DNA of 64,000 nucleotides from Escherichia phage slur16. The stretch lies in the sequence record NC_028248.1. One strand, 5' to 3'. The position numbers were made by a program, and so were the translations under genes. Each line of letters starts with the position of its first letter. Position 1 is the stretch's first letter. A model generated the notes under the pieces. That model saw only the letters and a list, made by a program, of their open reading frames with translations, was not told the DNA's origin and searched no databases. Below, piece by piece: positions 1,995 to 53,914 of the stretch.

Positions 1995-2004
1995 AACTGT
2001 CTCC

Positions 2005-4484: not shown

Positions 4485-4491
4485 AATAACT

Positions 4492-4520
4492 CCAAATAGA
4501 AAATCCCCGCCGAAGCGGGG
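4492..4520 (-). terminator. rho-independent terminator candidate
   Basis: Plus-strand CCCCGC-cgaa-GCGGGG hairpin (4505-4520); on the minus-strand transcript it is followed by a U-rich run (revcomp of 4492-4504). Lies between gene ends 4534 and 4484. Confidence 0.5.
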
Positions 4521-4533
4521 GAGGTCTTAGAAA

Positions 4534-4914
4534 TCAATCGTAGTGTGCCAAAATCTCTCCATCGTTGCAAGTTCCCTCTACAAAGTTATGAAGATTCATG
4601 CACTCATCTTGATAGAAGAATTTACCGCTTTTCAGCCGTAAGCCAAACAACTCCGCATCTCCACGATGGCAAGCCTCTACAAGTTCATAGATTTCATACG
4701 GCAACTCTCCGTCGTCATGGAAGAACCCAGCCTTATCGTTGACATAGATGAAGAAATAATCACTGCTATCGCAAGCGTCCAATATTTCAAACCAGATTTC
4801 ATCTACATCTTTTTCTCGGATATCGATCACGCAAGTGGAGCTGCATTCGTACTCCTTCTCCGGCTCTTCGGTCAATACTACCAGGTAGTTTCCCCGCTTA
4901 CCTACTTTAGCCAT
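4534..4914 (-). CDS. hypothetical acidic protein
   Basis: 126-aa ORF, compact spacing with neighbours, no motif recognised. Confidence 0.45.
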   Translation of the reverse strand: MAKVGKRGNYLVVLTEEPEKEYECSSTCVIDIREKDVDEIWFEILDACDSSDYFFIYVNDKAGFFHDDGELPYEIYELVEACHRGDAELFGLRLKSGKFFYQDECMNLHNFVEGTCNDGEILAHYD

Positions 4915-4923
4915 ACAACCTCC

Positions 4924-15578: not shown

Positions 15579-18500
15579 TTAACGAGAAAAGGTTGCGTAG
15601 GCTTCTAGACGATACTGCTGGTCACCAGGGAACATAACACCTATAGAGGCTGTCCCTAGAATCCTGCCTTCCTTTCCAGACTCCATTCTGAACCCTACCC
15701 ATCCTGAACTCCTTGCAGCCTCGATGTTGTCGCTATACCCGAAAGTGGCAAGATCGTCAACACCAGCCCCAAACAGCAACTGAAGCTGACTTCTCGGAAG
15801 CCCTATAATTTCAGGAATATACGCACCAAAGTACACCATCTGCCCTACCTTAGGACCGCTGCCGTACTCCATCGGTTTGCTTGTAGAGAAAGTCTTCATA
15901 CCAGAAGTACCTGCCGGATTAGGGTATGCCCCGTTTGTTGCTGTACCTATCCACATTCTCCACTGTGGTGCCATCTGTTTGACAGTAAAAGATGTTGAAG
16001 ACGTTTTGCGCCCTGCATCATCTGTAACTACAAACTTTATGGTGACATTCCCAGTAGCTTTAAATGTTACCAGTCCTGTGGTGGCATCCACTGTTGCAAT
16101 GTTGGTATTACTACTTTCCCAAGTCTTTCTAATCCCGGATACGTTGGAAGGGGTAATAGAAGGTTCCTGCATCTGCAGTTTACCACCCACAATCCCTATG
16201 CCGTTGCCCGGATTATACAGCACACCAACCTCGTCTATAATGTTCCCTGCTTTGAGACTATACTTCCTTGAGAAGTTGTAGGTTCCGTTATAAGTGTGTG
16301 TCCCTGAGAAGGTGACATCTGCCTTCCCGTAAGAGATGCAAACCAAAGCATACTTCCTGTCAGGCAACGTTTCTCCAGTCTCTGGGTGAGTTTTACCTAC
16401 CTGGAACACACTCGGGTCAGTAGAGTCGTGACTATCACTAACGGAGCTTGGACCGCCCATCAACTGTGACAAACAATTCCTTACCCATGTCCAGTTATTA
16501 TCGCTGGAGAAGTCCACAGTCAAATCAAACACAACCCACTCATTTGGCTTCCACACAGGTGTTGTAATGGACTTGCCTACACCACCTCCTTGGAGTGTTG
16601 CCGACTGTTCAGTGATCAGGGCCGCATAGGCCAGAGTTCCTAAACTCAAAGTCTGGCTTGCTGTCCTCACTACCTTAGAATCAGCATCTGTGAAGTTGTT
16701 GATGATCTGGAATGTGCCATAAGTGTTTTTACAGGTAATTCTGGCGTTCAGCGTGTCAATCTTCCTCACATCTGCCATAGCAGTGTTAGACACAGAGAAG
16801 TCAGAAGCTTTAGCTGAGTTTGCCGCAACAGCAGGATCAACGTTAAGAGTTGCGTTGAACTGACAGGCAGGGGTAACCAGCAGCTTGTTATCACCTATTT
16901 GCTTCCATGAAATACTTTGGACAGGTAGATTCCATTTAATGCCTGAGAAAACTTTAGCAACCCGTGGCCCCAAAGCTCCAGTCCTGTTGTCTTTACAGCA
17001 CATAGACATGGTGATCGTTGACGGAGTTGCCTGACCAAATAATTGCTGTGCTTTTGCAGAGGACATAGTGTAGAAATTGTCCTTAACAAACTCATCAGCA
17101 GCTAAAGATCCATCAGCTCTCCACCACTGAACCTGGTACCCTGTTTTGTCCCAACCACCGACCTGCTTCAAGTCCTCCCAGGAGATTTCTAGATCCCCAG
17201 TGGTAGGGTTGATTGCAGCAGTTCCCGGTGTTCCGGGTGACCACAATGGAATATCGAACCACGCTGGTTTAACCGACTGCACTGCGCTGGGACCTATTGC
17301 GGCAGCAAGTTGCTGGCCCATCAATACGCGAGCATCTTTCACCAGACCCCACTCGATCATAGACCCAGAGTAACCTTCTTTCTTGTAGGCTGAGGATCCG
17401 TTCAAATGGATGAGTCGGCTTGTGCCAAAGTTATGTGCTCCACCACCGTTGTCGTCTGCAAAATTGGTTATGATTCTATCCCTGATATTTTTCCATGCCC
17501 TGCCCCCAATCTCATAGTCATGGTCATAACATCTTTGCAGTGTTGTCCAGCAAATGATCGCCATCCTTCTACCATCGCTGAATCCAAAGGCCTGATCGTT
17601 AAGCTCTCTCCACAAGTAGCAGTTAGTGGTCCACATGGCCCTATGAATGTTAAACCAGTTTATAGATTTGGCTGAGTTGTCCCACTGAGTCCCAGGTAAT
17701 TCAGGCCATACTGCATTAACCAGCATGTCTTCTGTTCCTGCATCAACCAAGAACCCTCTTACCTTCTTACCCATGCCTACCCTATCTTTTGCAATCCAAC
17801 TGCCAAACAATCTCAGTTTTGGACCATAGACAACATCTTCCGGATGCTCAAAAGAAATATATTTTAGGTATATTGTAGGGTCACCATAGGTGCCATCACA
17901 AACAGCTTTGTGCATGTTCTCGCCAAGGTCTAGACGAAGTCCTGTTACAACTTTAGATGTGTCGGTGAATTTGTCTGTTAAATCAAACTCATACCACCAC
18001 CAACCTGCACCCAACAATACTTTCTTACAACGCTGTGCATCTGTATCAGATATTCTCTTATCACCTGCAAAAGGCGAGTCAGCAAACTGATAGTGCAGAG
18101 CAATCTCAAAAGGATGTGTGGATGTCCCGTTTTCTGCAAGAACTTGTTTACCTATTAAGTCGCACTTAATGATCATCACAACACGTTTGTACCCGTTTGT
18201 TACCGGAATTTGCATAGACATGGATGTCCCGTCCATGTTTGATCTCAGTGCAGTCATGATGATATAAGGGTCAACGGCATTGCCCAGAGTCTCAGGACCG
18301 GGGATTATCTTATACTTCTTGACCTGCCCCATGATGTAGTCACTGGCGTAAGTTGCCTCATTCAAGCAAGATCCTCCACCAGGTAACTCACCAGGTCCCC
18401 AGAAAAATGCGCCGTAACAGTTGTAGAACCACTTGTTAGGATCGTATTTATTCTTGAAGGTCTGAACCTCGTTGGCCTGTTTTGTCAAGAAAACCTGCGT

Positions 18501-21215
18501 ATCTGTGAAGATTGCAGGGTTTACTCTCGCCTGACGTGGAGGGTATCCTGTTGATTGGTTAAACCACTGATTACAAGAGTAATCCCTCATATAGTCATAA
18601 TCAGAGTATTTGTTTGCATCCTCGTTCCAACACATGTTCAGGTTGGTACCACCCATGCATACAATATATTCTGCGACATACTTATCACTTCTGGTAGGAA
18701 TACCTATGAACCATCTGTTAACAGGTTCATCCCAAGCTGTGCGCTCATCTTTAACGCAGATAGCAATCCAGTCATGTGTTCCTGTTTTCTTGCACACATC
18801 TCGCTTCATACCATAGTAGAACTCTTTAGTATTCGGCTCAGGTGCATTTATCAGGTAACTCCATGCCTGATTTGCATAAGTTCCATTGGTGCGTGGATCA
18901 TGATCAAAGGCATACATGATGATCCTTTCCCCACCAAGATGTTCGCCAAGAGTAACTTTGACATTCACATCGCCGTAACCATTGCGAACAACATCCATAT
19001 TATCAATAGAGATACCTCTGGGCGTGTAGGCAATTTTCAGCGAGTTATCTTCACTAGTGCCGCCAAGTGTAATCCCTATGTTGTTTGTTGTCCCGTCGAC
19101 ATATCTTACTGTAGCTTCCCAACGTATTCCGAAATATCCTGCATCATGGCTGACAATTTTCAGTGTACGAGCCCCAGAGTTAGGTTTTCCAGGATCAGGC
19201 CAAGGATCTGGATGTTCATGGACAGTCAACGATGTTCCGTTTTGCTCGTTGACCTGCAACATTTTACCGCCTCTGCCGTTAGGGTTGAACTCCCACAAGG
19301 CTTGTGTTTTCACAACATTGTCATACGTGGTACGTCTCTGATCGTAGATCTCTTGAGTCACATCGTAGGTTACAGACCCGGCATCCATTCTATGGAGTCG
19401 TACCATATACGATGTATCGCCTTCTACAACAGGTTGAGCTGCGTTAAGCCCGAAGTATACAGTATCGTTGACATGGAACTGTTTGTTTCTACCGACAGTA
19501 TGCCACTTGCCGTTGGACGGATACGCAGGAACTATGGTGTTCCAGTTCAAAGTTCTTGTCGTATGGGTTCTGCCTGTGCCATGCTTGTCATGATAGGTTA
19601 TTTTTACAGAGTACAGGCCACGTCTGTTAACATTTCTGTTATACTGGGTAACAACAACTTCGTTGGCCCCACCGTGGTTCCAGTTGGTGGAGAATTGGTA
19701 ATTTGCATCTGTAACAACCGTACCTGCAGCATTTACCAACTCAATCTTGTCAATAATGAACGTAGCCCCCTCTGGCTGAGGCTTCAATTTCATCTTGACC
19801 GTGTCACCAATGTAGATATTGCTAACACTACTAACACCATTAACGTCGAAAATATCATCAACGCCCCAACTGTCTACTGGGACATTTTTATACCAATTCT
19901 CAGGAACCTCTGTGAACCCCTGACTATTAAGTCTGCCGCCAAACAGGTTATTAGAGCCTGCAAAACTTCCCCTTGGGATGCCTGACCACCAAAGTTTGCC
20001 ATTAACAACAGTAAAGGTCCCTAAGAAACCTTCTCTGTGGATACCCTGGAAATAAACACTTTCTGTCCAGCTTACTGGCATCCGTTGCTCGACGTATTTA
20101 GCCGTAGCCAGAGCCTGATAGTGAATAAAATTAGCCCTAGGACTGTTGTTTGCAGATTGTGCACCAATATCATTGCACAGATTGCGAGAGAAGCCACGAT
20201 ACTGTTTGGTGCCATTATTGAAGAAAATGCCACTTGTGCCGTATCCACGAGCCATTATCACCTCATGGGTGTAGGTGATATTTAAGGAACGCCATGTGTC
20301 ATCTCCCCAGACGTCTTGCCCGTAGAATACGTTAACAAGCTGTTGGTCATCAGGTTTGTGCATCCTTTCTGTGGCTATAATTGCACCATTAGGTCCACAC
20401 ATAAACCCTTTCCACTCCTCATCTGCAGGAATGCCCCTCAAATCGTTACGAGTAATCTGCACAGGAGGCCAAACAAGGTCGTTTCTACTGTTATTTCTCA
20501 GAAAGTCGTATCCAGCAATCCAGAAACCTCTAGGACCACCGAAAATAACAGAGTTGTCATGCACCTCGCAGTTGATGCTTGGGTTTTTCCAAGGACCTGT
20601 TTCAGGATTTTCCGATGTCTCACCAATCTTTACAGGGGTTGCATGCTGATTTTTGTCAACATGAAGAGAGCCGTAAGTATTATTGCCAGAGCCGTACAGG
20701 TGAAGCATACCATCAGCCTCTGGTGCAGCAATTACCCACACTGTATTGTTTACGCCACCCATTACTTCAACAAGTCTCTCAGGATGGGTGTCCAAATGCA
20801 ACCCTGTTACGATCTGTTCCGGCAAAGGTGTCCACTCTCTGACACAAACATCGTTTCCACCTGCTGCCTCCGATCCGATAAGACCAGCTGTGCAACCAAT
20901 ATAGAAAAATTTATTATCGAATGTGCGGATTACAAATGCACGGTCAGCTCTCCAAACATGGTCTACGTTCCAAGCTGCCTCATTAGGATAGTTTATTGTA
21001 TCAAGATCTCCAGTCCGACACTCTCCGAACCTATTATAGCCAGTAATATTAAGCTGACCATCATCAAAAAGTATAGCTAAGCTATTTACATAGGATACTG
21101 TGTTGCTTGTACCATCACTGTTGTCTATTGGGTATGACAGAACAGCAAGTTCCTTAATTCCACCCCTCTTATCGAGGAAATGACGACCAAGTTTTAGCAA
21201 AGGGATTGGAAGCAT
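15579..21215 (-). CDS. giant virion-associated protein (1878 aa) with Big_2-like Ig domain; probable fibre/adhesin
   Basis: Uninterrupted 5.6-kb ORF. C-terminal segment TWESSNTNIATVDATTGLVTFKATGNVTIKFVVTDDAGRKTSSTSFTV resembles bacterial Ig-like group 2. N-terminus has RCC1/beta-propeller-like Gly-rich repeats. Sits at the distal end of the tail-fibre cluster. Confidence 0.6.
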   Translation of the reverse strand: MLPIPLLKLGRHFLDKRGGIKELAVLSYPIDNSDGTSNTVSYVNSLAILFDDGQLNITGYNRFGECRTGDLDTINYPNEAAWNVDHVWRADRAFVIRTFDNKFFYIGCTAGLIGSEAAGGNDVCVREWTPLPEQIVTGLHLDTHPERLVEVMGGVNNTVWVIAAPEADGMLHLYGSGNNTYGSLHVDKNQHATPVKIGETSENPETGPWKNPSINCEVHDNSVIFGGPRGFWIAGYDFLRNNSRNDLVWPPVQITRNDLRGIPADEEWKGFMCGPNGAIIATERMHKPDDQQLVNVFYGQDVWGDDTWRSLNITYTHEVIMARGYGTSGIFFNNGTKQYRGFSRNLCNDIGAQSANNSPRANFIHYQALATAKYVEQRMPVSWTESVYFQGIHREGFLGTFTVVNGKLWWSGIPRGSFAGSNNLFGGRLNSQGFTEVPENWYKNVPVDSWGVDDIFDVNGVSSVSNIYIGDTVKMKLKPQPEGATFIIDKIELVNAAGTVVTDANYQFSTNWNHGGANEVVVTQYNRNVNRRGLYSVKITYHDKHGTGRTHTTRTLNWNTIVPAYPSNGKWHTVGRNKQFHVNDTVYFGLNAAQPVVEGDTSYMVRLHRMDAGSVTYDVTQEIYDQRRTTYDNVVKTQALWEFNPNGRGGKMLQVNEQNGTSLTVHEHPDPWPDPGKPNSGARTLKIVSHDAGYFGIRWEATVRYVDGTTNNIGITLGGTSEDNSLKIAYTPRGISIDNMDVVRNGYGDVNVKVTLGEHLGGERIIMYAFDHDPRTNGTYANQAWSYLINAPEPNTKEFYYGMKRDVCKKTGTHDWIAICVKDERTAWDEPVNRWFIGIPTRSDKYVAEYIVCMGGTNLNMCWNEDANKYSDYDYMRDYSCNQWFNQSTGYPPRQARVNPAIFTDTQVFLTKQANEVQTFKNKYDPNKWFYNCYGAFFWGPGELPGGGSCLNEATYASDYIMGQVKKYKIIPGPETLGNAVDPYIIMTALRSNMDGTSMSMQIPVTNGYKRVVMIIKCDLIGKQVLAENGTSTHPFEIALHYQFADSPFAGDKRISDTDAQRCKKVLLGAGWWWYEFDLTDKFTDTSKVVTGLRLDLGENMHKAVCDGTYGDPTIYLKYISFEHPEDVVYGPKLRLFGSWIAKDRVGMGKKVRGFLVDAGTEDMLVNAVWPELPGTQWDNSAKSINWFNIHRAMWTTNCYLWRELNDQAFGFSDGRRMAIICWTTLQRCYDHDYEIGGRAWKNIRDRIITNFADDNGGGAHNFGTSRLIHLNGSSAYKKEGYSGSMIEWGLVKDARVLMGQQLAAAIGPSAVQSVKPAWFDIPLWSPGTPGTAAINPTTGDLEISWEDLKQVGGWDKTGYQVQWWRADGSLAADEFVKDNFYTMSSAKAQQLFGQATPSTITMSMCCKDNRTGALGPRVAKVFSGIKWNLPVQSISWKQIGDNKLLVTPACQFNATLNVDPAVAANSAKASDFSVSNTAMADVRKIDTLNARITCKNTYGTFQIINNFTDADSKVVRTASQTLSLGTLAYAALITEQSATLQGGGVGKSITTPVWKPNEWVVFDLTVDFSSDNNWTWVRNCLSQLMGGPSSVSDSHDSTDPSVFQVGKTHPETGETLPDRKYALVCISYGKADVTFSGTHTYNGTYNFSRKYSLKAGNIIDEVGVLYNPGNGIGIVGGKLQMQEPSITPSNVSGIRKTWESSNTNIATVDATTGLVTFKATGNVTIKFVVTDDAGRKTSSTSFTVKQMAPQWRMWIGTATNGAYPNPAGTSGMKTFSTSKPMEYGSGPKVGQMVYFGAYIPEIIGLPRSQLQLLFGAGVDDLATFGYSDNIEAARSSGWVGFRMESGKEGRILGTASIGVMFPGDQQYRLEAYATFSR

Positions 21216-21265: not shown

Positions 21266-23011
21266 TTAACGTTGTGCAATTACTACGTCTACGATATCAC
21301 CAACACCACAATATGTTAATTGCAGCAAGGTAACACTATTAGCCTTGTTATTAATAACAGGCGTTGCCGACAGGATAGCATACTTATCGTGCAAAGTCAC
21401 GTTGTGACCTACAGCATCCTGAATGACATAGATAACCGCAGTGAATGGATAAGGTTTATCTTCCGCTGATGTACCAGGCCATTGTCCTATTGTAAAATCC
21501 CCTTTCGCGTGGACAACATACATACTGGCCTGCCCGTTAGGTGTCCATGTCCCACTGGACGCGTCAACCTCCTCTAAATCAAAATCTACCTTTCCTGCGT
21601 GGAAAGTAGGGGCAGTAATGGTTTTACCCGCCTCAATTTCTTGAGAGGTGGTTATCTTGCCACTGGAGTTAATGCCATTACAAACAAAGTTGACATTAGA
21701 GAAGTCTGGCAGCCACCCAGTCACTGTGCCGGATATTTCAAGGTTGTGAAGGTAGGTGGTGCCCGTCCCTGCTGCGTTTAAACTAACATCTCCATTTACC
21801 TGCAAGTTTCTGGTAACGTTGCAGTTTTCAGAGTTTGCAGTTGTTGCAGTTAAAGTAGTGGTTGTCAGCTCGGTAATTACACCTTTGTTGGCTGTAAGCC
21901 CTTCCCCTTCAAAAGTTGCACGCTCATTGACTCTTAGGGTATTCAGAGCTATGTTTTGGATAGAGGCTGTACCTCGAACAACTACAGATCCGCCAACTTC
22001 TAAATCACCATTTATTAATGCGTCCCCCGTGCTTTCAATATAGCTAGGGTAAATCATGGTGCCATCGACAGAGTAGGTTATCCCTGTAACAGTGCCTGTC
22101 ACCTCAAGGTTCTTAACCCTGGTGGTTCCATCTACCTGCAATGTCGGTTCGGTTGCTGCCTTCATGGCATTACCACGAATGTACACGTAGTCAAAAAAGT
22201 TATTACCTAGACCATCAAAATGCACATCGTTATTATTAGCCACTGGTTTCCCAGAAGTTATAGTGTCAGCTATAACCCTGTGGGTGGACACTTCATGAGG
22301 TTGCAGCTCTGTGCTTCTCCAGTCTGCATGCTTAGGATCACTCCACGCAAAAGTAAGTGTAGAAGTATTTGCCGTGAGGATTAGGTTCCTGAAGCGTGCA
22401 GTAGAATCTGCTCCATTAACAGGCCCATGTAAGGTGAGTGTGCCACCAACTATAGTGTTAGCAAGTTCTGTAAGACCTTTTACCACCAAAGACCCTACAG
22501 TAACTTTCATTCCCTCCATGGCTTCAAATATGCTATCCACATAGTCAACAACAAACTCTGTGTTTGCTATAGACTCGGATTTGTCGTCCATTGGAGGCGT
22601 AGGTACTCGCGGGTCACCTTCGAACCTCGGACTGTTAAGTTTTGCGTAGTATTTTGCCATTACTGCAGAGTCGGTATATAATCTCCAGTTTGGAGATTGT
22701 GAAGGATCTGCTGGCATTCTAACCGGGTTAGATTTTGATGCTGCGGGAGCGTACCACCACTGAGGGCCTGTGTCCCCTTTAAACTCGTACAGCTGGTTAA
22801 AAACTGTTGTGGATGCACCATACGCCCAAGGGATCGGTGGCGTTTTAAAATAAAGGTTGTCAAGCATGGCTTTTCGTACCGTAGGGATGGTGGTCCCATC
22901 CTCTACGACAACTTCATCCACAGCGTTACCGTTGACAACCAAGTGCAAACGTTCAGAATCAACAATTACTTGATCTACCGCCTGCTCAAAGCTTGTCATG
23001 TCTTGCGCCAT
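21266..23011 (-). CDS. putative tail fibre protein
   Basis: 581-aa ORF rich in Thr/Gly/Asn beta-type repeats (TGTVTGITYSVDGT, LTANKGVITELTTTTLTATTANS), within the fibre cluster. Confidence 0.5.
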   Translation of the reverse strand: MAQDMTSFEQAVDQVIVDSERLHLVVNGNAVDEVVVEDGTTIPTVRKAMLDNLYFKTPPIPWAYGASTTVFNQLYEFKGDTGPQWWYAPAASKSNPVRMPADPSQSPNWRLYTDSAVMAKYYAKLNSPRFEGDPRVPTPPMDDKSESIANTEFVVDYVDSIFEAMEGMKVTVGSLVVKGLTELANTIVGGTLTLHGPVNGADSTARFRNLILTANTSTLTFAWSDPKHADWRSTELQPHEVSTHRVIADTITSGKPVANNNDVHFDGLGNNFFDYVYIRGNAMKAATEPTLQVDGTTRVKNLEVTGTVTGITYSVDGTMIYPSYIESTGDALINGDLEVGGSVVVRGTASIQNIALNTLRVNERATFEGEGLTANKGVITELTTTTLTATTANSENCNVTRNLQVNGDVSLNAAGTGTTYLHNLEISGTVTGWLPDFSNVNFVCNGINSSGKITTSQEIEAGKTITAPTFHAGKVDFDLEEVDASSGTWTPNGQASMYVVHAKGDFTIGQWPGTSAEDKPYPFTAVIYVIQDAVGHNVTLHDKYAILSATPVINNKANSVTLLQLTYCGVGDIVDVVIAQR

Positions 23012-23020
23012 GATTTCTCC

Positions 23021-23287
23021 TTAAGCTTTTTGCTCTTCGTTTTTAACGTGGTCAGGGTGCTGGCAACCCCACCGGAGCGAGATGAATTTGCTAATAAGCT
23101 GGGGGCAAGCTACTGAAGGCGCGTATATCCACGCATACCATTCAGGAAGCGTATCATTATACCCCATATGAATAAACACCCCAGTCATCACCGCCATGCC
23201 TATGTTTGACCATAGCTTAGATTGGGACACTTTCGTAGGGTCATCAGATGCCGCAACCAGTCCCCATAAAAACTGAGTTAGTTTCAT
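23021..23287 (-). CDS. small membrane protein (holin-like candidate)
   Basis: 88 aa with two or three hydrophobic helices (FLWGLVAA, WSNIGMAVMTGVFIHMG, WYAWIYAPSVA) and a charged C-terminus. Confidence 0.35.
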   Translation of the reverse strand: MKLTQFLWGLVAASDDPTKVSQSKLWSNIGMAVMTGVFIHMGYNDTLPEWYAWIYAPSVACPQLISKFISLRWGCQHPDHVKNEEQKA

Positions 23288-23298
23288 TTACCCTCTTT

Positions 23299-24345
23299 TT
23301 AAGCATAAGATATAGTGATCCATTGACCATTTACAAGTTTTTGGATAGCACCTGTCCAGTAATCACCTTGATAAGGGTGTTTATAAGCGTAGTTACCAGA
23401 GCACATCACATGTCCAGGGTAGACTCTTGACTCTCTGTAGGTGGTTTTAAAACGGTTTGCTATCCTTACATCATCAACCCCTCTGCTAGGCATAGGGATA
23501 GTAAGGTTACCGCTACTGTCTGCGCCGTTACCATTTACCCTGCGGACCACGTTTCTTCCACCAACTGTTGCATATTGGCCCCTGACGGTTTCATCGTTAC
23601 AATCAACTCTTCCACCTATTTGAGCGCTTCCGCAGGATTGTTGTCCATTAACAGTGGCTCTTGGTATCGTGACCGCATTGGCATTTGCAGAGGAACTTTT
23701 TGCATCGTTGCATTCAAGATTTCCTTGGATAGCCAGTCTTGCACGGTTGGCAGTTATAGCATTGAGCTTCATAGCTGAAAACACAGGCTGCCCACCAGAA
23801 GGTTGAAATCTCCAACGGAACCCATCTATTTGGTGAGAAGGATCATCAAGGTCTGTGCCGTCAGCACCACCGATGTTGTCCATAATCCAGAAATCCATCG
23901 TCGTCTTGTCTGGAGTTATGGTGGTATATATTGCCGCACTGTCTGTTGACGCAGATGCAAACTCGATTCTTTGAAGACCTAAAGTTTGAGTCTGAGTCAT
24001 TATGTCTCCAGACTTGTCAACATATAGATCGTCCATTTCTTCAGGTGAGTATACATTGAGAACTTGACGTGCAGCAGCTTTGTCTGGAACGTCTGCTAGA
24101 TTATTAGTGACCCTTAAGAATCTATTATCCCATCCTGGGACAACATCTTCTGTTAAATGCTTCAACCACGCAGAAAGCATGTGAAGTTCAAAGTTAACAA
24201 CTTCACATGCCATTCTTTGTGTCATATCCCAACCTTTCAATCTCTCTTCTTTTTTTGGTTGAGATTTATTCAACTCTCCCGTATTTTCAAGCACAACATC
24301 CTGATTGGCCCAAATATCAAGAGGGATAACTGGTTTAGTCATCAC
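23299..24345 (-). CDS. tail fibre protein, paralog A
   Basis: 348 aa; N-terminus MMTKPVIPLDIWANQDVVLENTGE and C-terminus QKLVNGQWITISYA are homologous to 25357..26397. Confidence 0.55.
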   Translation of the reverse strand: MMTKPVIPLDIWANQDVVLENTGELNKSQPKKEERLKGWDMTQRMACEVVNFELHMLSAWLKHLTEDVVPGWDNRFLRVTNNLADVPDKAAARQVLNVYSPEEMDDLYVDKSGDIMTQTQTLGLQRIEFASASTDSAAIYTTITPDKTTMDFWIMDNIGGADGTDLDDPSHQIDGFRWRFQPSGGQPVFSAMKLNAITANRARLAIQGNLECNDAKSSSANANAVTIPRATVNGQQSCGSAQIGGRVDCNDETVRGQYATVGGRNVVRRVNGNGADSSGNLTIPMPSRGVDDVRIANRFKTTYRESRVYPGHVMCSGNYAYKHPYQGDYWTGAIQKLVNGQWITISYA

Positions 24346-24431
24346 GTTCTCCTGAGAAAATTCCTTAGGACTATTTTAACACTTTAGAGAACAAAATGCA
24401 AGAACGGAGTCCTTTCCGTTCTGACCTTTGT

Positions 24432-24746
24432 TTACCTTTTACTATGCTCTACGAGCATGTGCAAAATCTTTTGTACATCAGCTCGGATGCCGGAGACATC
24501 TGTCCTGACATCCTGCTTAAGGTCGTTAATATCGGCCTCTAGCTTGCTTAACCGAGTCTCGATAACGGAATCAAGTCTATCTTTTGTAACCATACTGTTT
24601 TTCACTAAGATGAGGTCTTTCTCCAGCTCATCCAACCTCTTGGAAATGCCTTTCCATTTGGTGTGCCACTGGTTGAAAGCCCATACACAGATCGGGACAA
24701 CGGTACCCATGCAGATACCGTACAATGCCGCCAAATCCAACTCCAC
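24432..24746 (-). CDS. membrane-anchored coiled-coil protein
   Basis: 104 aa; N-terminal hydrophobic helix (LAALYGICMGTVVPICVWAF) then a heptad-like charged region. Confidence 0.35.
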   Translation of the reverse strand: MELDLAALYGICMGTVVPICVWAFNQWHTKWKGISKRLDELEKDLILVKNSMVTKDRLDSVIETRLSKLEADINDLKQDVRTDVSGIRADVQKILHMLVEHSKR

Positions 24747-24757
24747 AACACCTCCTC

Positions 24758-25342
24758 TTAGAGGGTAGGTCGCTCCGGGAAGAAAATGTCAGGGGCTTTA
24801 GATGTATCTATTTCAAGAAGTTTTACCCTGTACATTTTCAAATCTCTGATGTTACGTTTCTGGTCATCAGTAAGATCATATTCAAGGTCAATCATGTCTT
24901 GATAGGCACCAATTCTAGCAGTAGCCCAAGCAAGTTCTGTCTCTATGACACCCTCTGCCTGTTGAACAAAGAATTCATTGTCTGTGACAAATCCATCACC
25001 AACTAAACGCAAAGCGTCGTGGTGAAGCATAATGTTTTCTGGTACCTCTTCTTTTTTGGCGATAACCACACGAAGACCTGGAGCAGGCCATAAGGCATCA
25101 GGTTCTTCTGTAGATGTCTTAAGAATTCCCTTCTCGTCAACAAGCAGGAAGATACAACCTGGATTTTCTTGTCGTAATGTTCGTGACTGCACATACCAAT
25201 CGCCATCATCATTACGTAAAAAATACCCGGTGTATGCGGTGTAATCCTCAACCTCTTGAGGGGTCAGCTCTTTGGTTTCCTTGTTGGCGTGGTATTCGCC
25301 AGATCCCGGTTGGTAAAGTTTAAACTCTTGAAGTATTTTCAT
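24758..25342 (-). CDS. tail fibre assembly chaperone (Tfa-like)
   Basis: 194 aa; C-terminal DDQKRNIRDLKMYRVKLLEIDTSKAPDIFFPERP resembles the conserved C-terminal motif of Tfa/gpG-type chaperones; sits directly downstream of a fibre gene. Confidence 0.5.
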   Translation of the reverse strand: MKILQEFKLYQPGSGEYHANKETKELTPQEVEDYTAYTGYFLRNDDGDWYVQSRTLRQENPGCIFLLVDEKGILKTSTEEPDALWPAPGLRVVIAKKEEVPENIMLHHDALRLVGDGFVTDNEFFVQQAEGVIETELAWATARIGAYQDMIDLEYDLTDDQKRNIRDLKMYRVKLLEIDTSKAPDIFFPERPTL

Positions 25343-25356
25343 GCTAGTCCTCCGAT

Positions 25357-26397
25357 CTATGCATAATTAACAGTGATCCATTGACCATTTACAAGTTTTT
25401 GTAAAGGTCCTGCCCAGTAGGTTGAACCACGCATCTCTTTTTTGTCACCGAAATGCCAGCCTGTGACAACGTAGCCGTTGCGGATTGGAGATTCAGAAAC
25501 GCCGTCCACAAGTCTTGCACCGATTCTGATGTCTTGCACACCTGTCTGCGGGATAGTGATCGTTACATCACCGTTACCGTTAGCCGTCACTCCGTTCACA
25601 GAGCGAACCACATTTCTGTTACCTACAACACAGTGCTGGCTTCTTACAACCATACTGTCACAACTTGCACCACCATTAACATATACTGACCCAGCCGTCA
25701 ACTGACTGGCCACATTACAGTTGGTGAATGTTGCGGTATTGCTGATAGTAAGGTTATTGCACCTCATGTTATCGACAACTTCAACATTGCCTACCACTTT
25801 CAACAGCGCACGGTTAGCCGTGATCGCGTTAAGGTACATCAAAGTGAACTCCGGATTAATATCCGGCTGAGTTGGCTGGAATCTCCAACGAAACGCATCT
25901 ATTGTAGATGTGCCACCATCATCAAACGCCCCAGTATTATCACTTAACCCAAAGTCGAGAGTTGTCTTATCTGGGCCAATAGTTGTCTCTATCCAAGCCT
26001 TATCTGTCTCGGCAGCTTTAAAGTTGATACGTTGCAAACCCAATGGGCCTGTCATTGTATCACCTGTAACTTTTACATACCTGGCGTCTGCCTCTTCCTT
26101 AGTAATAATCCCAAGGTTTCTACGGGCAACAGGAATGTTCAAAAGATCACTCAAGTTATTATCACGTACCAGATAACGGCCTTCTTGAGCGGGGATCTGC
26201 TCGTCAGCAATGTATTTTGCCCAAGTTCCGAGCATATTGAAAATATAGTTAAGTTCTTCACATGAGGGCTTTTGACCAAGATCCCAACCTTTTCTCCACA
26301 AATCATCAATCGGGCGTAGCCTGTTCTGTCTGTGGGTGTTAGGCAGAACCTGATCCTCCTCTGCCCAAATCTCTAATGGAAAACTAGGTTTTGACAT
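25357..26397 (-). CDS. tail fibre protein, paralog B
   Basis: 346 aa; N-terminus MSKPSFPLEIWAEEDQVLPNT and C-terminus QKLVNGQWITVNYA; last ~29 nt of coding sequence identical to paralog A. Confidence 0.55.
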   Translation of the reverse strand: MSKPSFPLEIWAEEDQVLPNTHRQNRLRPIDDLWRKGWDLGQKPSCEELNYIFNMLGTWAKYIADEQIPAQEGRYLVRDNNLSDLLNIPVARRNLGIITKEEADARYVKVTGDTMTGPLGLQRINFKAAETDKAWIETTIGPDKTTLDFGLSDNTGAFDDGGTSTIDAFRWRFQPTQPDINPEFTLMYLNAITANRALLKVVGNVEVVDNMRCNNLTISNTATFTNCNVASQLTAGSVYVNGGASCDSMVVRSQHCVVGNRNVVRSVNGVTANGNGDVTITIPQTGVQDIRIGARLVDGVSESPIRNGYVVTGWHFGDKKEMRGSTYWAGPLQKLVNGQWITVNYA

Positions 26398-26409: not shown

Positions 26410-28482
26410 TTATGAGAAGTCTGGCGGGACAACATCTTCTACATACCCTTTCAGAGCAACCTGCCCCATATGAAGCACGGTAGAATCTCTAGCGGTAACA
26501 GTGATGCTGTCAGACATTACTTGCGGATATGCCCATACATACTGTTTTACCTCAGGGTATCTATACTCTATAGTTGCCATGTTTCCGCAAATACATCTCC
26601 ATAAAAATTCTTGGTAATTCCTAGTTGGGTCGTAGCCATATACCGGAGCAAGCTCTTTACTAGGAACGAACCCTGCAAGGTATTGTATTTCAGACGGTTG
26701 CCAACCTAACTTAACGATAGGTATGTTTACAGACTCTTTTGCCTTTTCAATACCTCCCTGCATCACCCAATCGTAGCACTCAGTACAGAAGAAATCAAGA
26801 GCACCTGCTTCCTTTTTATATTGGTCAGCAAGGTTCAGCTTTTGCGTAAGCTCGGTTTCCATAATGGTTGGGAAAAACAGCAAAGCTGTCATCTGAGCTG
26901 ATGCAGCGTGTGCCTTTACTGCCTTTGAAATAGCCGCAATACGAGCGCCAAGCTTACCACGACAAAATGCTACATACTTGTCGTAAACACCGCCAGTTTT
27001 AGGATCGTCAATAGTCCCAATATCTAATGCATACTCACCTGTCTCATCATAAAACGCCTGCTTTGTAGGGTAATCATAAATACAAGGTCTACGAGTATCG
27101 GTATTGTACCACCACCACGGTTCACCAACCTGCATAATCACTGGCAGGTTGTTTCTCATAGCGGCTGATGCAAAATTCTTAAATACTGCAGTAAGGAAAT
27201 TCATACCCTCTTCAATGGTTGGAGACAGGAGGTAGCTACAAGGTGTATACCCTGTTTTAGCGTAGTTATCGTTCCAGTCTCTTTGGGTCCATTCCAACGG
27301 GCAGGCATCGCTGAAAAGCTCAAAACTTACAGATTGCATAACGTCGAAGTTATGTCGTTTGGCATTGTACATAAAATCATCATGCCATTTATAAGCTGCA
27401 GCGTTTAGCGCTCCTGTTCTGTTTATAGACCATTGAGTTCCTGACCATGTGTAGTCATAATAATGACTCATACCAACATAATGGTTTATGGTTCCGGTAT
27501 AGCCCAGACGCTTGATATTGTTCAACACCCTTAAAGGAGACACGTTCCACATATCGTCATATGCTGTGCAGATCCCAACGTCGTGTTCTTTCACCTGAAT
27601 ATTGTTAAGTTGCATCATTTTCCAGCCTGTGTCTGGCTGAAGCAGATCTAGGCGCAACTCACACTCTACATTTTCCGTTCTTGGGTTTGTGCTATTGCTT
27701 ACCCAATCTTTAGGCATAAGCGGTATTAAAATCCTTCTCACCTGTCGAGGATCAACACCCATCATATTGTTGTTCTGGTCCATCCCGACGCAGTCCTCGA
27801 AATCAATATGAATTTCTGCAACATTCTTATCCTCTGAGATGCTGACAGCATATTGAGCTAAAGGAACATAGATGATTGTGCCATCAACAAGGTCTACAGT
27901 CATAATCATCTTTTCAGGAGTGGAGAAGTTGCTGGCGTTGGTTATTGACATTCTGAACCAAAGCTTGGTATTTCTCATCTCATAATGATCATCAAACCCA
28001 ATACCGAAATGGTCATACTTGTCAACTGTTTCCCAAATGCACCCAGCCATACCTCCATATGTTCTTGACACTAAACGGTTAATACAACAGTTATTATCTG
28101 CAACAATACAGGTGCTTTCAGTCTGCTGGGTAGTTGTAACCCAATATCTTGGGTGAAACATTCTCTCCTCGACAGTATCCCAAGATATCCTGTCAAGATT
28201 CTCATCTGAAACTATTGTACATTTCGCCCTTTGTGTTCCAATCATCACCCCTTGAGATTTTGATGAAAACTCCATAAAGAAGCTTCTTGGCAACCTGTTG
28301 GGTAATTTGTCAACAATTTCCACTGGGATCTCAATACTGGTTGCCCCAATTGGGATAGTTACATCACCCTCAACATGATTATAATCCCTACCAGGAACGG
28401 CAGTATCCTGAACTGTGCGGTAATGAAACCGTGCAGCCATTGTAGAGTAATCACGGTAAGGTTTAAAAATAGCTGTTGCCAT
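26410..28482 (-). CDS. putative tail fibre/spike protein
   Basis: 690-aa ORF in the fibre cluster; N-terminal GRDYNHVEGDVTIPIGATSIEIPVEIVDK is Calx-beta-like; remainder unassigned. Confidence 0.45.
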   Translation of the reverse strand: MATAIFKPYRDYSTMAARFHYRTVQDTAVPGRDYNHVEGDVTIPIGATSIEIPVEIVDKLPNRLPRSFFMEFSSKSQGVMIGTQRAKCTIVSDENLDRISWDTVEERMFHPRYWVTTTQQTESTCIVADNNCCINRLVSRTYGGMAGCIWETVDKYDHFGIGFDDHYEMRNTKLWFRMSITNASNFSTPEKMIMTVDLVDGTIIYVPLAQYAVSISEDKNVAEIHIDFEDCVGMDQNNNMMGVDPRQVRRILIPLMPKDWVSNSTNPRTENVECELRLDLLQPDTGWKMMQLNNIQVKEHDVGICTAYDDMWNVSPLRVLNNIKRLGYTGTINHYVGMSHYYDYTWSGTQWSINRTGALNAAAYKWHDDFMYNAKRHNFDVMQSVSFELFSDACPLEWTQRDWNDNYAKTGYTPCSYLLSPTIEEGMNFLTAVFKNFASAAMRNNLPVIMQVGEPWWWYNTDTRRPCIYDYPTKQAFYDETGEYALDIGTIDDPKTGGVYDKYVAFCRGKLGARIAAISKAVKAHAASAQMTALLFFPTIMETELTQKLNLADQYKKEAGALDFFCTECYDWVMQGGIEKAKESVNIPIVKLGWQPSEIQYLAGFVPSKELAPVYGYDPTRNYQEFLWRCICGNMATIEYRYPEVKQYVWAYPQVMSDSITVTARDSTVLHMGQVALKGYVEDVVPPDFS

Positions 28483-29168
28483 TAACCCTCCTGTCTAGTT
28501 GCGTTTACTGTAATACTTTCACAATAAATGGTTGTGGTGTCCCAATCAGGTCTTACGTCAGGAACATACAGCAAAGTAGCCAGCCCACCAACTCCGAATT
28601 GGTTTTCTTCCCACACTGATCCGAAGCCAAGAGCTGTATGGTCCCCTTCAAAACCAAAAGCTTGCCCTTGCGATTCTGTAAGACGCAAATGACAAGGCAA
28701 TGGTAGCATATCTAAGATCTGATCGATAGACTGCAATATGTCAAAGCAAGTTTTTCTAATATTTATGTCAAACCTGAAGTTGTCTCCTTTCCACGTATCG
28801 AAATTGTTTCTTCCGAACAATTGTCGCAAGGTGGAGATGACATCTTCGCGAGTCCCGCCCCTTGATGCTGCGGCCTGCTGAATAATTAGTGTGGCACGAA
28901 AATCAGCATCTGAAAGTCCATTCCTAAGAATACCAAGTTGATTACCAACTTCGTCAAGGTATCTTCCGCTGGCATTGTTAAGCAATCTTCCTTCAGCCAA
29001 ACCTACCAGCATCTTATCAACATCCTCCAACCTTTTAAGGTACACGGTTAAGAATGTGACCAAATTAACCTTCTCAGCCAGAAAATCTCCAGGCAGGTAG
29101 TCAAGACCTCCCTGAACAAAATCTGGCAGAGTGTGGATGTGGTTAACATCCGACTTAATCTCTGCCAT
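28482..29168 (-). CDS. putative baseplate/tail protein
   Basis: 228-aa ORF, start overlaps the stop of the upstream gene; position only. Confidence 0.4.
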   Translation of the reverse strand: MAEIKSDVNHIHTLPDFVQGGLDYLPGDFLAEKVNLVTFLTVYLKRLEDVDKMLVGLAEGRLLNNASGRYLDEVGNQLGILRNGLSDADFRATLIIQQAAASRGGTREDVISTLRQLFGRNNFDTWKGDNFRFDINIRKTCFDILQSIDQILDMLPLPCHLRLTESQGQAFGFEGDHTALGFGSVWEENQFGVGGLATLLYVPDVRPDWDTTTIYCESITVNATRQEG

Positions 29169-29179
29169 ATCTCGCCGCC

Positions 29180-30670
29180 TTAAATAGTTTGTTGGAAAGT
29201 TATATTACTTTCGTCGAGGTCAAACACCTCGGTCATGTTCGCAACAATATCGTTTGTAGTGTAAGCTTCATCAGAAGCTCCTACTGGTTTAACTTGAATT
29301 ACCAGTCTATTAAATCTGCCTATTGATACAGCAGCAGATGCAGCGCCGACCAATTGGATATTATACAACGTATCTGCAACATCCAGTCCGTTAACAACCT
29401 GCAAAAGAGCCTCTACAATGGCATCTTTTTCGGTTGTGGAAAGTGCGGCACCGGAGTAGGTAATTCTTACATCTAGGCGGTAGGTATTTGCCTTGGAGTA
29501 ATAAATTCTTTCAGTTTGACCATCAGATGTAGTGACATCGTAGAAAATATTACCATAAGTCCTGTTAGTACAGGCTATAGTTTGGTAAAGTGCTTGGCAA
29601 ATGTCCTCCGTTGCACCACCAAACACAACCACTTGGAACTTGTAAGGAGGTATACCTTTAGCATCAGTTTTATCGGTGTTGTTGGAGAACACCCTCACTT
29701 TCTCAACACCTTTCACCTCGCTTACAGCGCTAAGGATTGCAGGACGGGTAGCCTTAGATGTTAACTGTTTTGTGCTGGAAGCTCTTAAGCGATACTCTGA
29801 GTCTTTCTCAACATCCCTGCCCTCATTGAATCTTTCTCGGTTGGTAAGCTTGATAAATCCACTGGGAGTAGGTGACATTGTTGTCACGGTTTCTGCCTCT
29901 CTTGACAGCTCACCAGCCTCGTTAGCGATAACATCCAGGGTGATAGTTCTTTCCCCTACAATCGGGGATACTCTGAAATCTACTCTACTATTAAGTCCAA
30001 CTTGATCAAGATTCGAATTGTACCCTATCCACAACGTTCCTGTCAACATATCGACCTGAATCAAATCGTCGTTCAACAGGGTTGTATTATCGACAATGAA
30101 TTGCTTAATCTCTCCGTAAAAGCTTGGCAAATCAGAAGAGTCCAGAGACTTATCTGTTAAAACCAGACTTTTTGTTTTGATACTTCCATCTGTCTGGTTG
30201 GTAATTTGAAAGTTGTATTTACCAATCCTTAGGTCTGGAGCATTTATTCTGTGAGCAATAAGATTCCCTGCTACTTGCACATCGTTGCTAAGAACAAAGT
30301 TGCCACTGTCCAGCGTATAAGTTTTGGAATCATAAATCATATTGTACGGCACAGTTGTGTTGATTGTCAACTGGCAGGTACCTGATGATTTAGAACGGCC
30401 TCTTCGGTAAATACCCTGTCTTCCAAGAAGCTCATCCAGGTAAATACCTTCTGCCCCATACAGCGTCTGTGATGCGTATACAGATGCTGCCATAAGAATA
30501 AGTTGATACTCTCGCTCGTTGAAGATAGTGGTCAGCTTATCTGCAACGGAGTTACTCTGTACGTTGAAGTTTTCGCCAAAAGCACGGATCAGGCTTTGCT
30601 TAGTTTCAACGATTAGGTCATTTAGGGTTGGTATAACGAAACCAGCCTCTGTCAATCCATACTTAGCCAC
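29180..30670 (-). CDS. putative baseplate wedge-type protein
   Basis: 496-aa ORF, first gene after a promoter candidate; GGAGG RBS. Function from position and size only. Confidence 0.4.
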   Translation of the reverse strand: MAKYGLTEAGFVIPTLNDLIVETKQSLIRAFGENFNVQSNSVADKLTTIFNEREYQLILMAASVYASQTLYGAEGIYLDELLGRQGIYRRGRSKSSGTCQLTINTTVPYNMIYDSKTYTLDSGNFVLSNDVQVAGNLIAHRINAPDLRIGKYNFQITNQTDGSIKTKSLVLTDKSLDSSDLPSFYGEIKQFIVDNTTLLNDDLIQVDMLTGTLWIGYNSNLDQVGLNSRVDFRVSPIVGERTITLDVIANEAGELSREAETVTTMSPTPSGFIKLTNRERFNEGRDVEKDSEYRLRASSTKQLTSKATRPAILSAVSEVKGVEKVRVFSNNTDKTDAKGIPPYKFQVVVFGGATEDICQALYQTIACTNRTYGNIFYDVTTSDGQTERIYYSKANTYRLDVRITYSGAALSTTEKDAIVEALLQVVNGLDVADTLYNIQLVGAASAAVSIGRFNRLVIQVKPVGASDEAYTTNDIVANMTEVFDLDESNITFQQTI

Positions 30671-30703
30671 GTCACTCCTCCGGTATGAAAATCTCTACAA
30701 GGT

Positions 30704-30732
30704 ATTTTACCAAATTTTGTAACAATAGTCAA
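30704..30732 (-). promoter_or_regulatory. sigma70-like promoter with extended -10
   Basis: Minus strand: -35 TTGACT (30732..30727), 17-nt spacer ending in TGG, -10 TAAAAT (30709..30704); 34 nt upstream of the ATG at 30670. Confidence 0.55.
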
Positions 30733-36183: not shown

Positions 36184-36214
36184 TGTGCCTCCAGGTTAAA
36201 CAATCATGATAGCT

Positions 36215-36243
36215 ATTTTACCAGATTTTGAGTTAATACGCAA
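36215..36243 (-). promoter_or_regulatory. sigma70-like promoter with extended -10
   Basis: Minus strand: -35 TTGCGT (36243..36238), 17-nt spacer ending in TGG, -10 TAAAAT (36220..36215). Confidence 0.5.
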
Positions 36244-50341: not shown

Positions 50342-50386
50342 TGCACCATATTTGTGTATTTTACCATGATTATGGTGCATTGTCAA
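50342..50386 (-). promoter_or_regulatory. sigma70-like extended -10 promoter flanked by a 9-bp inverted repeat
   Basis: Minus strand: -35 TTGACA (50386..50381), 17-nt spacer ending in TGG, -10 TAAAAT (50363..50358). Inverted repeat TGCACCATA (50342-50350) / TATGGTGCA (50371-50379) is centred on the -10. Confidence 0.55.
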
Positions 50387-53873: not shown

Positions 53874-53914
53874 TAATGTATTTTACCACAAAGATGCATC
53901 AAAAGCAACAATTT

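Follow-up and report, generated by a model that had tools for sequence, protein, structure and literature searches.

Paired short tail fibres of Escherichia phage slur16 and a 30-nt block common to the 3' ends of their genes

Genes and signals of the fibre locus

The window analyzed here, a 64-kb stretch of Escherichia phage slur16 DNA, is 100% identical to slur12, a Vequintavirus (rV5-like). Its list of open reading frames includes two on the minus strand, at 23299-24345 and 25357-26397, that encode products of 346-348 aa. An earlier interpretation made from the letters alone (the sequence-only reading) had taken these for paralogous tail-fibre genes accompanied by a Tfa chaperone, and this identification is borne out. 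Aligned from end to end, the two products have 43% identity (E=7e-95), and the minus-strand gene at 24758-25342 matches Pfam Caudo_TAP (PF02413, E=9e-12) and phrog_136 (E=1e-35). We refer to the proteins as fibre A (23299-24342, minus strand; rV5 gp30 orthologue) and fibre B (25357-26397, minus strand; rV5 gp33 orthologue). The GTG at 24345 that had been proposed as the start of fibre A is displaced by the annotated start, an ATG at 24342, one codon inside. Gene order, gp33-gp32-gp31-gp30-gp29, is the same as in rV5, whose map from gp29 to gp34 matches.

Both fibres match phrog_4465, 'tail fiber protein', with the profile covered from position 1 to 342 of 342 (E=2e-166 for A and 2e-171 for B). 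In sequence searches of the PDB, the short tail fibre of phage phiTE (9CUY) was matched by residues 1-108 of fibre B (E=1e-19) and by residues 1-83 of fibre A (E=1e-9). Residues 286-343 of fibre B also matched residues 440-501 of Mu gpS (5YVQ chain A; E=1.9e-6 for the whole sequence and an i-Evalue of 0.0065 for this stretch), and the same search returned no Mu gpS match for fibre A. An AF2 model of fibre A, computed from an alignment of A plus B only, was unusable (mean pLDDT 28, pTM 0.16). The BASEL annotation of fibre B is 'short tail fiber protein', and in BASEL phages the locus is annotated as two short tail fibres plus a chaperone.

The Caudo_TAP gene, the orthologue of rV5 gp32 and the only Tfa gene of the cassette, lies directly downstream of fibre B and two genes upstream of fibre A. 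A sequence search of its product against the PDB gave nothing meaningful, and the Tfa assignment therefore rests on Pfam and PHROG. The gene that follows (24432-24746, minus strand; rV5 gp31, phrog_5345) codes for 104 aa, with a transmembrane helix at the N-terminus (hydropathy peak, residues 3-24) and a coiled coil. It has homologues in Av-05 and GAP31 (tblastn, E=1e-16 to 5e-18) and comes after Tfa in every Vequintavirinae genus examined. Fibre A is preceded by a gap of 89 nt, which contains a terminator-like hairpin with a T-rich tract (24401-24422, minus strand) and a late-promoter-like motif, TGTTAAAATA (24372-24381, minus strand), which matches P030, a putative late promoter of rV5 listed in Table S4 of PMC3606486. 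The motif TGKTAAAATA occurs five times in the window, always on the minus strand, versus 0.34 occurrences expected. The late-promoter-like motif would give fibre A a transcription start of its own.

On the far side of fibre A lies an 88-aa gene (23021-23287, minus strand; rV5 gp29) that is annotated as encoding a membrane protein and matches phrog_1322, 'membrane protein' (E=3e-32); its product is 50-52% identical to homologues in Av-05 and GAP31. The sequence-only reading had assigned a Tfa-like chaperone gene to one fibre and a small membrane protein to the other as downstream neighbours. Both neighbours are present, but the hydropathy of the 88-aa protein is weak (best 17-aa Kyte-Doolittle mean 1.27). 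By sequence comparison, this gene is one of the conserved small genes found after Tfa in other genera rather than a partner specific to fibre A.

Together these genes make up the short-tail-fibre module of a Vequintavirus. In the literature, rV5 gp30 and gp33 are identified as short tail fibres and gp32 as Tfa (Kropinski et al. 2013, PMC3606486), and the paralogue pair is described again for the BASEL collection (Maffei et al. 2021, PMC8594841). Paired fibres are thus already on record for rV5-like phages of E. coli, and finding them here is ordinary; the slur16 genes are orthologous to rV5 gp30, gp33, and gp32 without essential difference. The sequence-only reading would have been undercut if only one fibre were incorporated into virions. 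According to PMC3606486, mass spectrometry found both proteins in rV5 virions, and the virion proteome includes gp32 as well as gp30 and gp33.

Relationship of the two fibres

It had been proposed that the two genes are alike at their ends and different in the middle, and the alignment shows otherwise. Overall nucleotide identity is 52%. In windows of 30 aa, amino acid identity is 30-50% at the N-terminal end, rises to a maximum of 53-70% in alignment columns 106-165, and is still 47-53% up to column 225; it is down to 23% in columns 211-255 and 27-33% in columns 301-345. At the very end similarity is restored, with 17 of the final 22 residues identical versus 45% for residues 286-346 of fibre B, those 22 included.

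Synteny with Av-05, GAP31, R7, and KB57 makes fibre B the positional orthologue of the lone short tail fibre in other Vequintavirinae genera. In these four phages and in 24-2-1, a single short fibre gene is followed in turn by Tfa, the 104-aa gene, a 157-aa membrane-protein gene, and a gene of ~88 aa. A tblastn search with homologues from other genera found no 157-aa gene in the 64-kb window, and fibre A appears to have taken the place that this gene holds elsewhere. The N-terminus of fibre B is 59-66% identical to its counterparts in Av-05, R7, and GAP31, versus 40% to fibre A; for the C-terminus the values are 54-57% (Av-05, R7, EmilieFrey, and rivia) versus 45%. Fibre A is at most 39% identical to anything outside the genus, versus 43% to fibre B.

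Fibre B, placed after the baseplate genes and a 690-aa fibre gene and with the Tfa chaperone gene directly next, would therefore be the ancestral short fibre by position, and fibre A probably a paralogue confined to the genus that diverged faster. Fibre A may instead have been acquired horizontally from an unsampled lineage rather than duplicated in this one, since the distance of its N-terminal 125 aa to fibre B is no smaller than that to outgroup fibres. Both proteins carry an N-terminal baseplate-docking domain like that of the phiTE short fibre. A putative C-terminal domain of the Mu gpS type is detectable by sequence in fibre B, and fibre A seems to keep only the terminal motif.

That motif is part of a C-terminal peptide common to A and B, YW-G--QKLVNGQWIT--YA. 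The pattern Q-[KY]-x-[IV]-N-G-x-W is present in both slur16 fibres, in Mu gpS (terminal motif QKNINGTW), in the phiTE fibre (QKKVNGVW), and in the fibres of Av-05, R7, GAP31, EmilieFrey, rivia, and 24-2-1. Four of these phages (Av-05, R7, EmilieFrey, and rivia) have the form QY[LY][IV]NG.W, each with a Tfa-like gene next. By protein comparison, what A and B have here is the local variant of a motif that occurs in Mu-S-type fibres encoded beside a Tfa gene. The motif appears to be old as a protein sequence but not as a nucleotide sequence, since other genera keeping the peptide match the slur16 sequence at only 14-24 of 30 nt. It may have been kept for folding and trimerisation aided by the single common Tfa, a role suggested by co-occurrence and by the literature on Mu Tfa (PMC9608196).

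A 30-nt block of identity and its origin

The sequence-only reading had pointed to ~29 identical nucleotides in the two genes. The window indeed contains this plus-strand 29-mer twice, at 23314-23342 and 25372-25400, without a mismatch; no further copy with up to three mismatches exists in the window, and none arose in 100 shuffles. An exact-repeat comparison extends the run to 30 nt, at 23314-23343 in fibre A and 25372-25401 in fibre B, both on the minus strand. The coding strand reads CAAAAACTTGTAAATGGTCAATGGATCACT and encodes QKLVNGQWIT. The block was said to comprise the last coding nucleotides, whereas 12 sense nt still separate it from the stop codon, and these last codons differ between A and B. 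Around it extends a 62-nt region of raised similarity (23300-23361, with its partner at 25358-25419; repeat family D1) that is 84% identical versus 52% gene-wide.

The two copies are direct repeats 2058 nt apart, and no inverted copy occurs in the window with up to three mismatches allowed. The block loosely resembles hix/gix half-sites. A Gin/gix-like invertase site was nevertheless rejected, since the repeats are direct, sit right at the 3' end, and have no inverted counterpart. Two further candidates were set aside. Inspection of CAAAAAC for -1 frameshifting showed that the zero frame, CAA AAA CTT, is not an X XXY YYZ heptamer, and an overlapping plus-strand reading frame that might constrain the sequence lies opposite copy A only (23248-23430), with no counterpart at B.

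Identical termini flanking divergent centres were the basis for proposing recombinational domain shuffling, in which conserved ends serve as recombination handles and the centre is swapped between copies or phages, yielding two independent host-range determinants. There is one block only, at the extreme 3' end, with no 5' counterpart; the next-longest exact runs between A and B are 12, 11, and 9 nt. A crossover in the block would swap no more than the 4 terminal codons, and it is in the centre that the two genes are most alike. Some observations favour the proposal: in genome L005, divergence from slur12 drops from ~13% to 0% at ~23362, where the 62-nt region has its 5' edge, and YN3 has a mosaic fibre A that combines two orthologous alleles. 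However, the block does not interrupt the divergent A allele of the JEP1 type, which has differences at 23344, 23337, and 23329. The locus is 94.5-100% identical across >100 genomes (98-100% in rV5-type genomes), and PMC8594841, in its accessible portion, reports no allelic variation.

Dual receptor recognition is a legitimate idea, and recognition of two LPS chemotypes was proposed for rV5 in PMC3606486. Against two host-range determinants stands the receptor itself, as Vequintavirus, with two fibres, and Justusliebigvirus, with one, reportedly share GlcI of the LPS outer core as terminal receptor, which has been mapped genetically. We consider the shuffling model as a whole to be quite improbable.

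The identity of the block exceeds what the protein sequence demands. All 9 degenerate codons inside it are the same in both genes, for which the product of per-codon match probabilities is 1.3e-4. Outside the block the same codon is used at 45 of 135 identical degenerate residues versus 51 expected under independent choice, and synonymous sites elsewhere in the genes are therefore saturated. When codons were resampled on the fixed protein alignment, a run of at least 30 nt had a probability of 4e-4, a significance that is inflated because the statistic was chosen post hoc; a looser hand estimate for run length is ~0.01.

This inflation lends some weight to coincidence, whereby a strongly conserved decapeptide was encoded alike by chance under common codon preferences. 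Several block codons are frequent in the phage's late genes (AAA 0.60, CAA 0.48, AAT 0.42, and GGT 0.38), and Av-05, although of a different genus, has 24 of 30 nt the same and 5 of 7 degenerate codons at common residues. Both probability estimates and the independent codon choice in the rest of the gene speak against chance, as does the identity of the last 22 residues relative to the region that contains them. On balance, coincidence is unlikely but deserves to be taken seriously.

Comparison across related phages bears on the age of the block. The population analysis covered GenBank phage records, with IMG/VR contributing 5 related loci only, and changes between the A and B copies were compared in 11 other genomes. 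In JEP1, WM, EI-SP-GF, YN3, L005, and L006, the two block copies of the same genome differ at 1-4 positions. Every one of these changes affects a single copy, either A or B, and most are synonymous. A total of 171 exact copies were found in 106 phage records, so that two exact copies are present in only ~65 records. Because changes are independent in A and B and not all of the 106 records retain two exact copies, there is no ongoing homogenisation. The consensus block is found in both A and B genus-wide, including copy A of L005, the most divergent genome, and its identity is accordingly dated to the ancestor of the genus.

Among orthologues, third positions are somewhat less variable inside the block than across the gene (4/20 versus 45%; binomial p = 0.019), which would also fit a weak constraint at the nucleotide level. 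This observation, the statistical excess of identity, and the location of both copies 27-56 nt upstream of the next gene's start codon could indicate a selected nucleic-acid element, for instance an internal promoter or a translation signal serving the downstream gene, a structured RNA, or a sequence recognized by a recombinase or a DNA-binding protein. Yet a scan revealed no sigma-70-like promoter on the coding strand of either copy, the rV5 late-promoter motif is absent from the block, and Rfam gave no match at E <= 1. The two contexts differ in their RNA folds, neither of which improves on shuffled sequence (z = -0.26 and -1.38). The downstream genes, for Tfa and the 88-aa protein, are mutually unrelated, other genera with the same peptide have not kept the nucleotides, and synonymous changes accumulate freely in either copy. 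Such an element is very improbable. We give the least credence of all to the idea that the block is held identical, or nearly so, at the nucleic-acid level, either as a 3' mRNA signal that times translation or chaperone recruitment or as a preferred site of paralogue conversion that keeps the tips compatible with the single Tfa.

The block is best explained as a decaying trace, neither a maintained DNA or RNA element nor a handle for cassette shuffling. A single short event of gene conversion or patch recombination between the paralogues in the genus ancestor would have made the copies identical, and the A and B copies would since have drifted independently. This conversion is inferred and not observed, the polarity of donor and recipient is not established, and a tract of 30 nt is very short. 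We assign a probability of roughly 60% to the account as a whole, namely an rV5-like fibre module in which the block is an old conversion footprint over a peptide constrained by folding and the chaperone.

For the biology of these phages this adds little beyond bookkeeping, since paired fibres with a common chaperone are already in the literature. Neither the 30-nt block nor the replacement of the 157-aa gene is mentioned in the accessible portions of PMC3606486 and PMC8594841. The additions are the location of the second fibre gene, with its own late-promoter-like motif, at the position of the 157-aa membrane-protein gene of other genera, and, at the extreme 3' ends, what is probably an old micro-conversion covering a motif associated with the chaperone. 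Neither alters understanding of the system. There may be some use in engineering these therapeutically popular phages, as a guide to the C-terminal residues to retain in tip swaps so that the single Tfa works.

Comparison with known fibre systems

Phage Mu offers a parallel for the fibre tip. The C-terminus of fibre B aligns with that of gpS in the gpS/gpU structure (5YVQ), QK-x-[IV]NG-x-W included, and a Caudo_TAP gene is directly downstream. The Mu chaperone remains in the virion (PMC9608196), and rV5 gp32 was likewise detected in virions (PMC3606486). Unlike Mu, the slur16 locus has no invertible G segment or inverted repeats, its repeats being direct; no site-specific invertase gene is annotated in the 20-kb neighbourhood of the locus in BASEL phage RudolfGeigy. 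The slur16 fibres are also shorter (346 aa versus 504 aa for gpS) and have an N-terminus of the Vequintavirinae type, and fibre A has no sequence match to gpS.

At the other end of the protein, the N-terminal ~100 aa of the short tail fibre of the Certrevirus phiTE are homologous to those of A and B. Residues 3-92 of phiTE were modelled, and its N-terminus forms the joint to the baseplate wedge (PMC11972413). The phiTE fibre differs in its length of 554 aa, its predicted coiled coil and Ig-like domains, and its flagella binding (PMC11972413). Likeness to the slur16 fibres is limited to the N-terminus and the last ~20 aa.

The T-even gp37/gp38 genes likewise have short conserved islands within otherwise diverged fibre genes. 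Tétart and colleagues reportedly described in 1998 that such conserved motifs (His boxes and glycine-rich motifs) mediate recombination. The T-even genes have several motifs around hypervariable segments and form a highly mosaic population, whereas here there is one 3'-terminal block and little allelic variation.

HHpred similarity to T4 gp12 is reported for rV5 gp30 and gp33 in PMC3606486. In our PDB search gp12 gave no sequence match to A or B, and we regard it as a functional analogue, a baseplate-bound trimer with the LPS core as its terminal receptor. The chaperone of T4 gp12 is gp57A and not Tfa.

The short-tail-fibre module

The locus corresponds to the short-tail-fibre module gp33-gp32-gp31-gp30 already known from rV5-like phages. 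An 8-kb query around it matches slur12 (LN881735) at 100% identity and over 100 further Vequintavirus (rV5-like) genomes at 94-99%. Among GenBank records, 16-21 of the MG0656xx series titled “Campylobacter phage” (e.g., MG065644), with C. jejuni as the stated host and some of them marked UNVERIFIED, are 98-99% identical to E. coli Vequintavirus at this locus; they probably represent mislabelled entries or assemblies of a contaminant.

Every gene in the region lies on the minus strand. In transcription order, and with orthologue numbers (gp27 to gp35) taken from the rV5 record, the genes encode a Baseplate-J protein (29180-30670), a 228-aa baseplate protein (gp35, 28482-29168), a 690-aa fibre with an N4-gp65-like TIM barrel (gp34, 26410-28482), fibre B (gp33, 25357-26397), the tail fibre assembly chaperone Tfa (gp32, 24758-25342), a 104-aa transmembrane/coiled-coil protein (gp31, 24432-24746), fibre A (gp30, 23299-24342), an 88-aa protein (gp29, 23021-23287), a 581-aa fibre (gp28, 21266-23011) and a 1878-aa Ig-domain fibre (gp27, 15579-21215). 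The chaperone proposed from the sequence alone is indeed Tfa (Caudo_TAP, E=9e-12; phrog_136 match). The small membrane protein proposed alongside it, the 88-aa product, has the support of its family annotation, but its hydropathy is weak.

According to Kropinski et al. (2013; PMC3606486), gp30 and gp33 of rV5 are both 347 aa long, share 42.3% identity and resemble T4 gp12. Genetic screens have identified GlcI of the LPS outer core as the terminal receptor for Vequintavirus and Justusliebigvirus alike. Because of this receptor genetics and the earlier rV5 descriptions (the paired proteins and the putative late promoter P030; Kropinski et al. 2013), the cassette must be considered already known. 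The idea that paired short fibres may serve two receptors is an old proposal. The neighbouring 690-aa fibre (26410-28482) matches the TIM-barrel and N-terminal domains of the N4 gp65 “non-contractile tail sheath” and also Calx-beta, in agreement with the NGR/ECA glycan recognition ascribed to this protein in published work (including PMC8594841).

Relationship and origin of the two fibres

The fibre A and B proteins align over their full length (43% identity, E=7e-95; 52% overall at the nucleotide level), and both match phrog_4465 end to end in a PHROG profile search. Amino-acid identity is patchy, peaking at 53-70% in alignment columns 106-165 versus 23% in columns 211-255. The sequence-only reading, in which the ends are shared and the middle differs, is thus contradicted by a maximum that lies mid-gene.

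In a PDB sequence search, the N-termini of both fibres match the short tail fibre of phiTE in baseplate structure 9CUY, where the model covers residues 3-92 and the N-terminus provides the joint attaching to the wedge (PMC11972413). At its C-terminus, fibre B aligns with gpS of Mu (5YVQ); the aligned part includes a terminal QK-x-[IV]NG-x-W motif, with which the phiTE fibre also ends. No similarity between fibre A and gpS was detectable by this search, although fibre A keeps the terminal motif. Tfa-dependent fibres of the Mu-S type have a motif in common, of which the C-terminal peptide shared by A and B is the local version. Judging from the co-occurrence of motif and Tfa and from what is known of Mu Tfa (PMC9608196), the peptide would most likely be kept for folding or trimerisation with one shared chaperone.

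Avunavirus (Av-05, 24-2-1), Seunavirus (GAP31, R7) and Mydovirus (KB57) carry one short fibre. There the order is short fibre, Tfa, a 104-aa gene, a gene for a 157-aa polytopic membrane protein (by hydropathy) and an ~88-aa gene. The 157-aa gene lies between the 104-aa and ~88-aa genes at 4449-4922 of the Av-05 locus, 4461-4934 of GAP31 and 4346-4819 of KB57. The window retains the 104-aa and 88-aa genes, has no counterpart of the 157-aa gene anywhere in its 64 kb, and carries fibre A in that place (23299-24432). The short-fibre frame of Klebsiella phage KB57 (2501-3546 of its locus) is apparently broken: the N-terminal ~45 aa and the annotated CDS (start 2617) are in different frames, owing to a frameshift or else to a sequencing error.

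By position, fibre B is the orthologue of the single-copy fibre, and the short fibres that other phages have in single copy are nearer to it than to fibre A. The N-terminus of fibre B is 59-66% identical to those of Av-05, R7 and GAP31 versus 40% to fibre A, and its C-terminus is 54-57% identical to those of Av-05, R7, EmilieFrey and even the unrelated Rosemountvirus rivia versus 45% to fibre A. The likeness between A and B exceeds that to outgroups only mid-gene (58%) and in the last 22 residues (17/22 identical). From these comparisons we infer that fibre A arose by duplication within the lineage and then diverged faster. It could also have been acquired from an unsampled relative; its best match outside the genus reaches 39%, and none is closer than fibre B.

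In Salmonella phage rivia, an unrelated 52-kb myovirus (Rosemountvirus; 1484-3744 of its locus), the last ~60 aa of a fibre are 54-59% identical to fibre B. This tip is nearer to fibre B than fibre A is, and two tandem Tfa-like genes come next. C-terminal tip and chaperone thus act as a module exchanged across phage families.

A 30-nt identity between the paralogues

The identical 29-mer reported from the sequence alone was confirmed as two exact copies with 0 mismatches, and no further copies were found in the window at up to 3 mismatches or in shuffles. The exact run is 30 nt long (23314-23343 and 25372-25401; coding strand CAAAAACTTGTAAATGGTCAATGGATCACT) and encodes QKLVNGQWIT. Rather than forming the last coding nucleotides, this block stops 12 sense nt short of the stop codon, and the final codons differ between the fibres. 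A 5' counterpart is absent, because the next longest exact runs between A and B are only 12, 11 and 9 nt.

Outside the block, the same codon is used at 45 of 135 identical degenerate residues, where independent choice expects 51; synonymous change between the paralogues has therefore reached saturation. Inside it, 9 of 9 degenerate codons are identical. With the late-gene codon usage of the phage, the product of per-residue match probabilities is 1.3e-4, and when codons are resampled on the fixed protein alignment, a run of 30 nt or more has P = 4e-4, although the statistic was picked after the fact and a looser calculation by hand gives ~0.01. This makes the block a genuine outlier, if not an overwhelming one, and chance is a minor alternative.

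Among 11 other Vequintavirus loci, the block copies diverge in several lineages, and each change is restricted to one paralogue. Copy A is changed (TTT and/or AAC and/or ACC) in JEP1, WM, EI-SP-GF and locus L006, and copy B (CAG and/or AAG) in loci L005 and L006. A phage collection search returned 171 exact 30-mer copies over 106 records, which means that only ~65 genomes have two exact copies and ~40 have one. Across the whole genus, A and B have the consensus block in common, and even copy A of L005, the most divergent genome, carries it; the identity thus dates from the genus ancestor and has decayed since. Other genera keep the peptide but not the nucleotides (14-24 of 30 identical).

The most economical explanation of the 30-nt identity would be one short gene conversion in that ancestor, whose trace has drifted since. 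Weak constraint on the nucleotides themselves is a minor alternative, of which a weak hint may be seen in third positions that vary somewhat less among orthologues within the block than in the gene on average (4/20 versus 45%, p = 0.019). There is no sigma-70-like promoter on the coding strand at either copy, and the late-promoter motif is found at other positions, not within the block. The RNA folds predicted for the two block contexts are unlike each other and do not improve on those of shuffled sequences, and an Rfam search of the block gave no match at E <= 1. An invertase-type switch is excluded because the repeats are direct.

The proposal that conserved ends flank a shuffled centre is not supported: there is one block without a 5' partner, the centre is where the fibres are most alike, and a crossover at the block would swap four codons only. 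Breakpoints do occur in related phages. Divergence of the L005 fibre A falls from ~13% to 0% at ~23362, i.e., over the last 62 nt, and fibre A of YN3 is a mosaic of two alleles, its 5' half being of the slur12 type and its 3' half of the JEP1 type; both are ordinary recombination between orthologues. The JEP1-type divergent allele of A, however, continues across the block, differing at 23344, 23337 and 23329, which means that the block is no general breakpoint.

Transcription signals upstream of fibre A

The sole sizeable intergenic gap in the operon is the 89 nt upstream of fibre A (24343-24431, minus strand). It contains a terminator-like hairpin (24401-24422, minus) and then the motif TGTTAAAATA (24372-24381, minus), exactly the sequence listed for the putative late promoter P030 of rV5 in Table S4 of Kropinski et al. 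(PMC3606486). Given this arrangement, fibre A may be transcribed late together with the genes after it, as a unit of its own. The degenerate motif TGKTAAAATA occurs 5 times in the window versus 0.34 expected (24372-24381, 30703-30712, 36214-36223, 50357-50366 and 53879-53888, all minus), always on the late-gene coding strand, and agrees with the rV5 late-promoter-like consensus TggTAaAAtA (PMC3606486).
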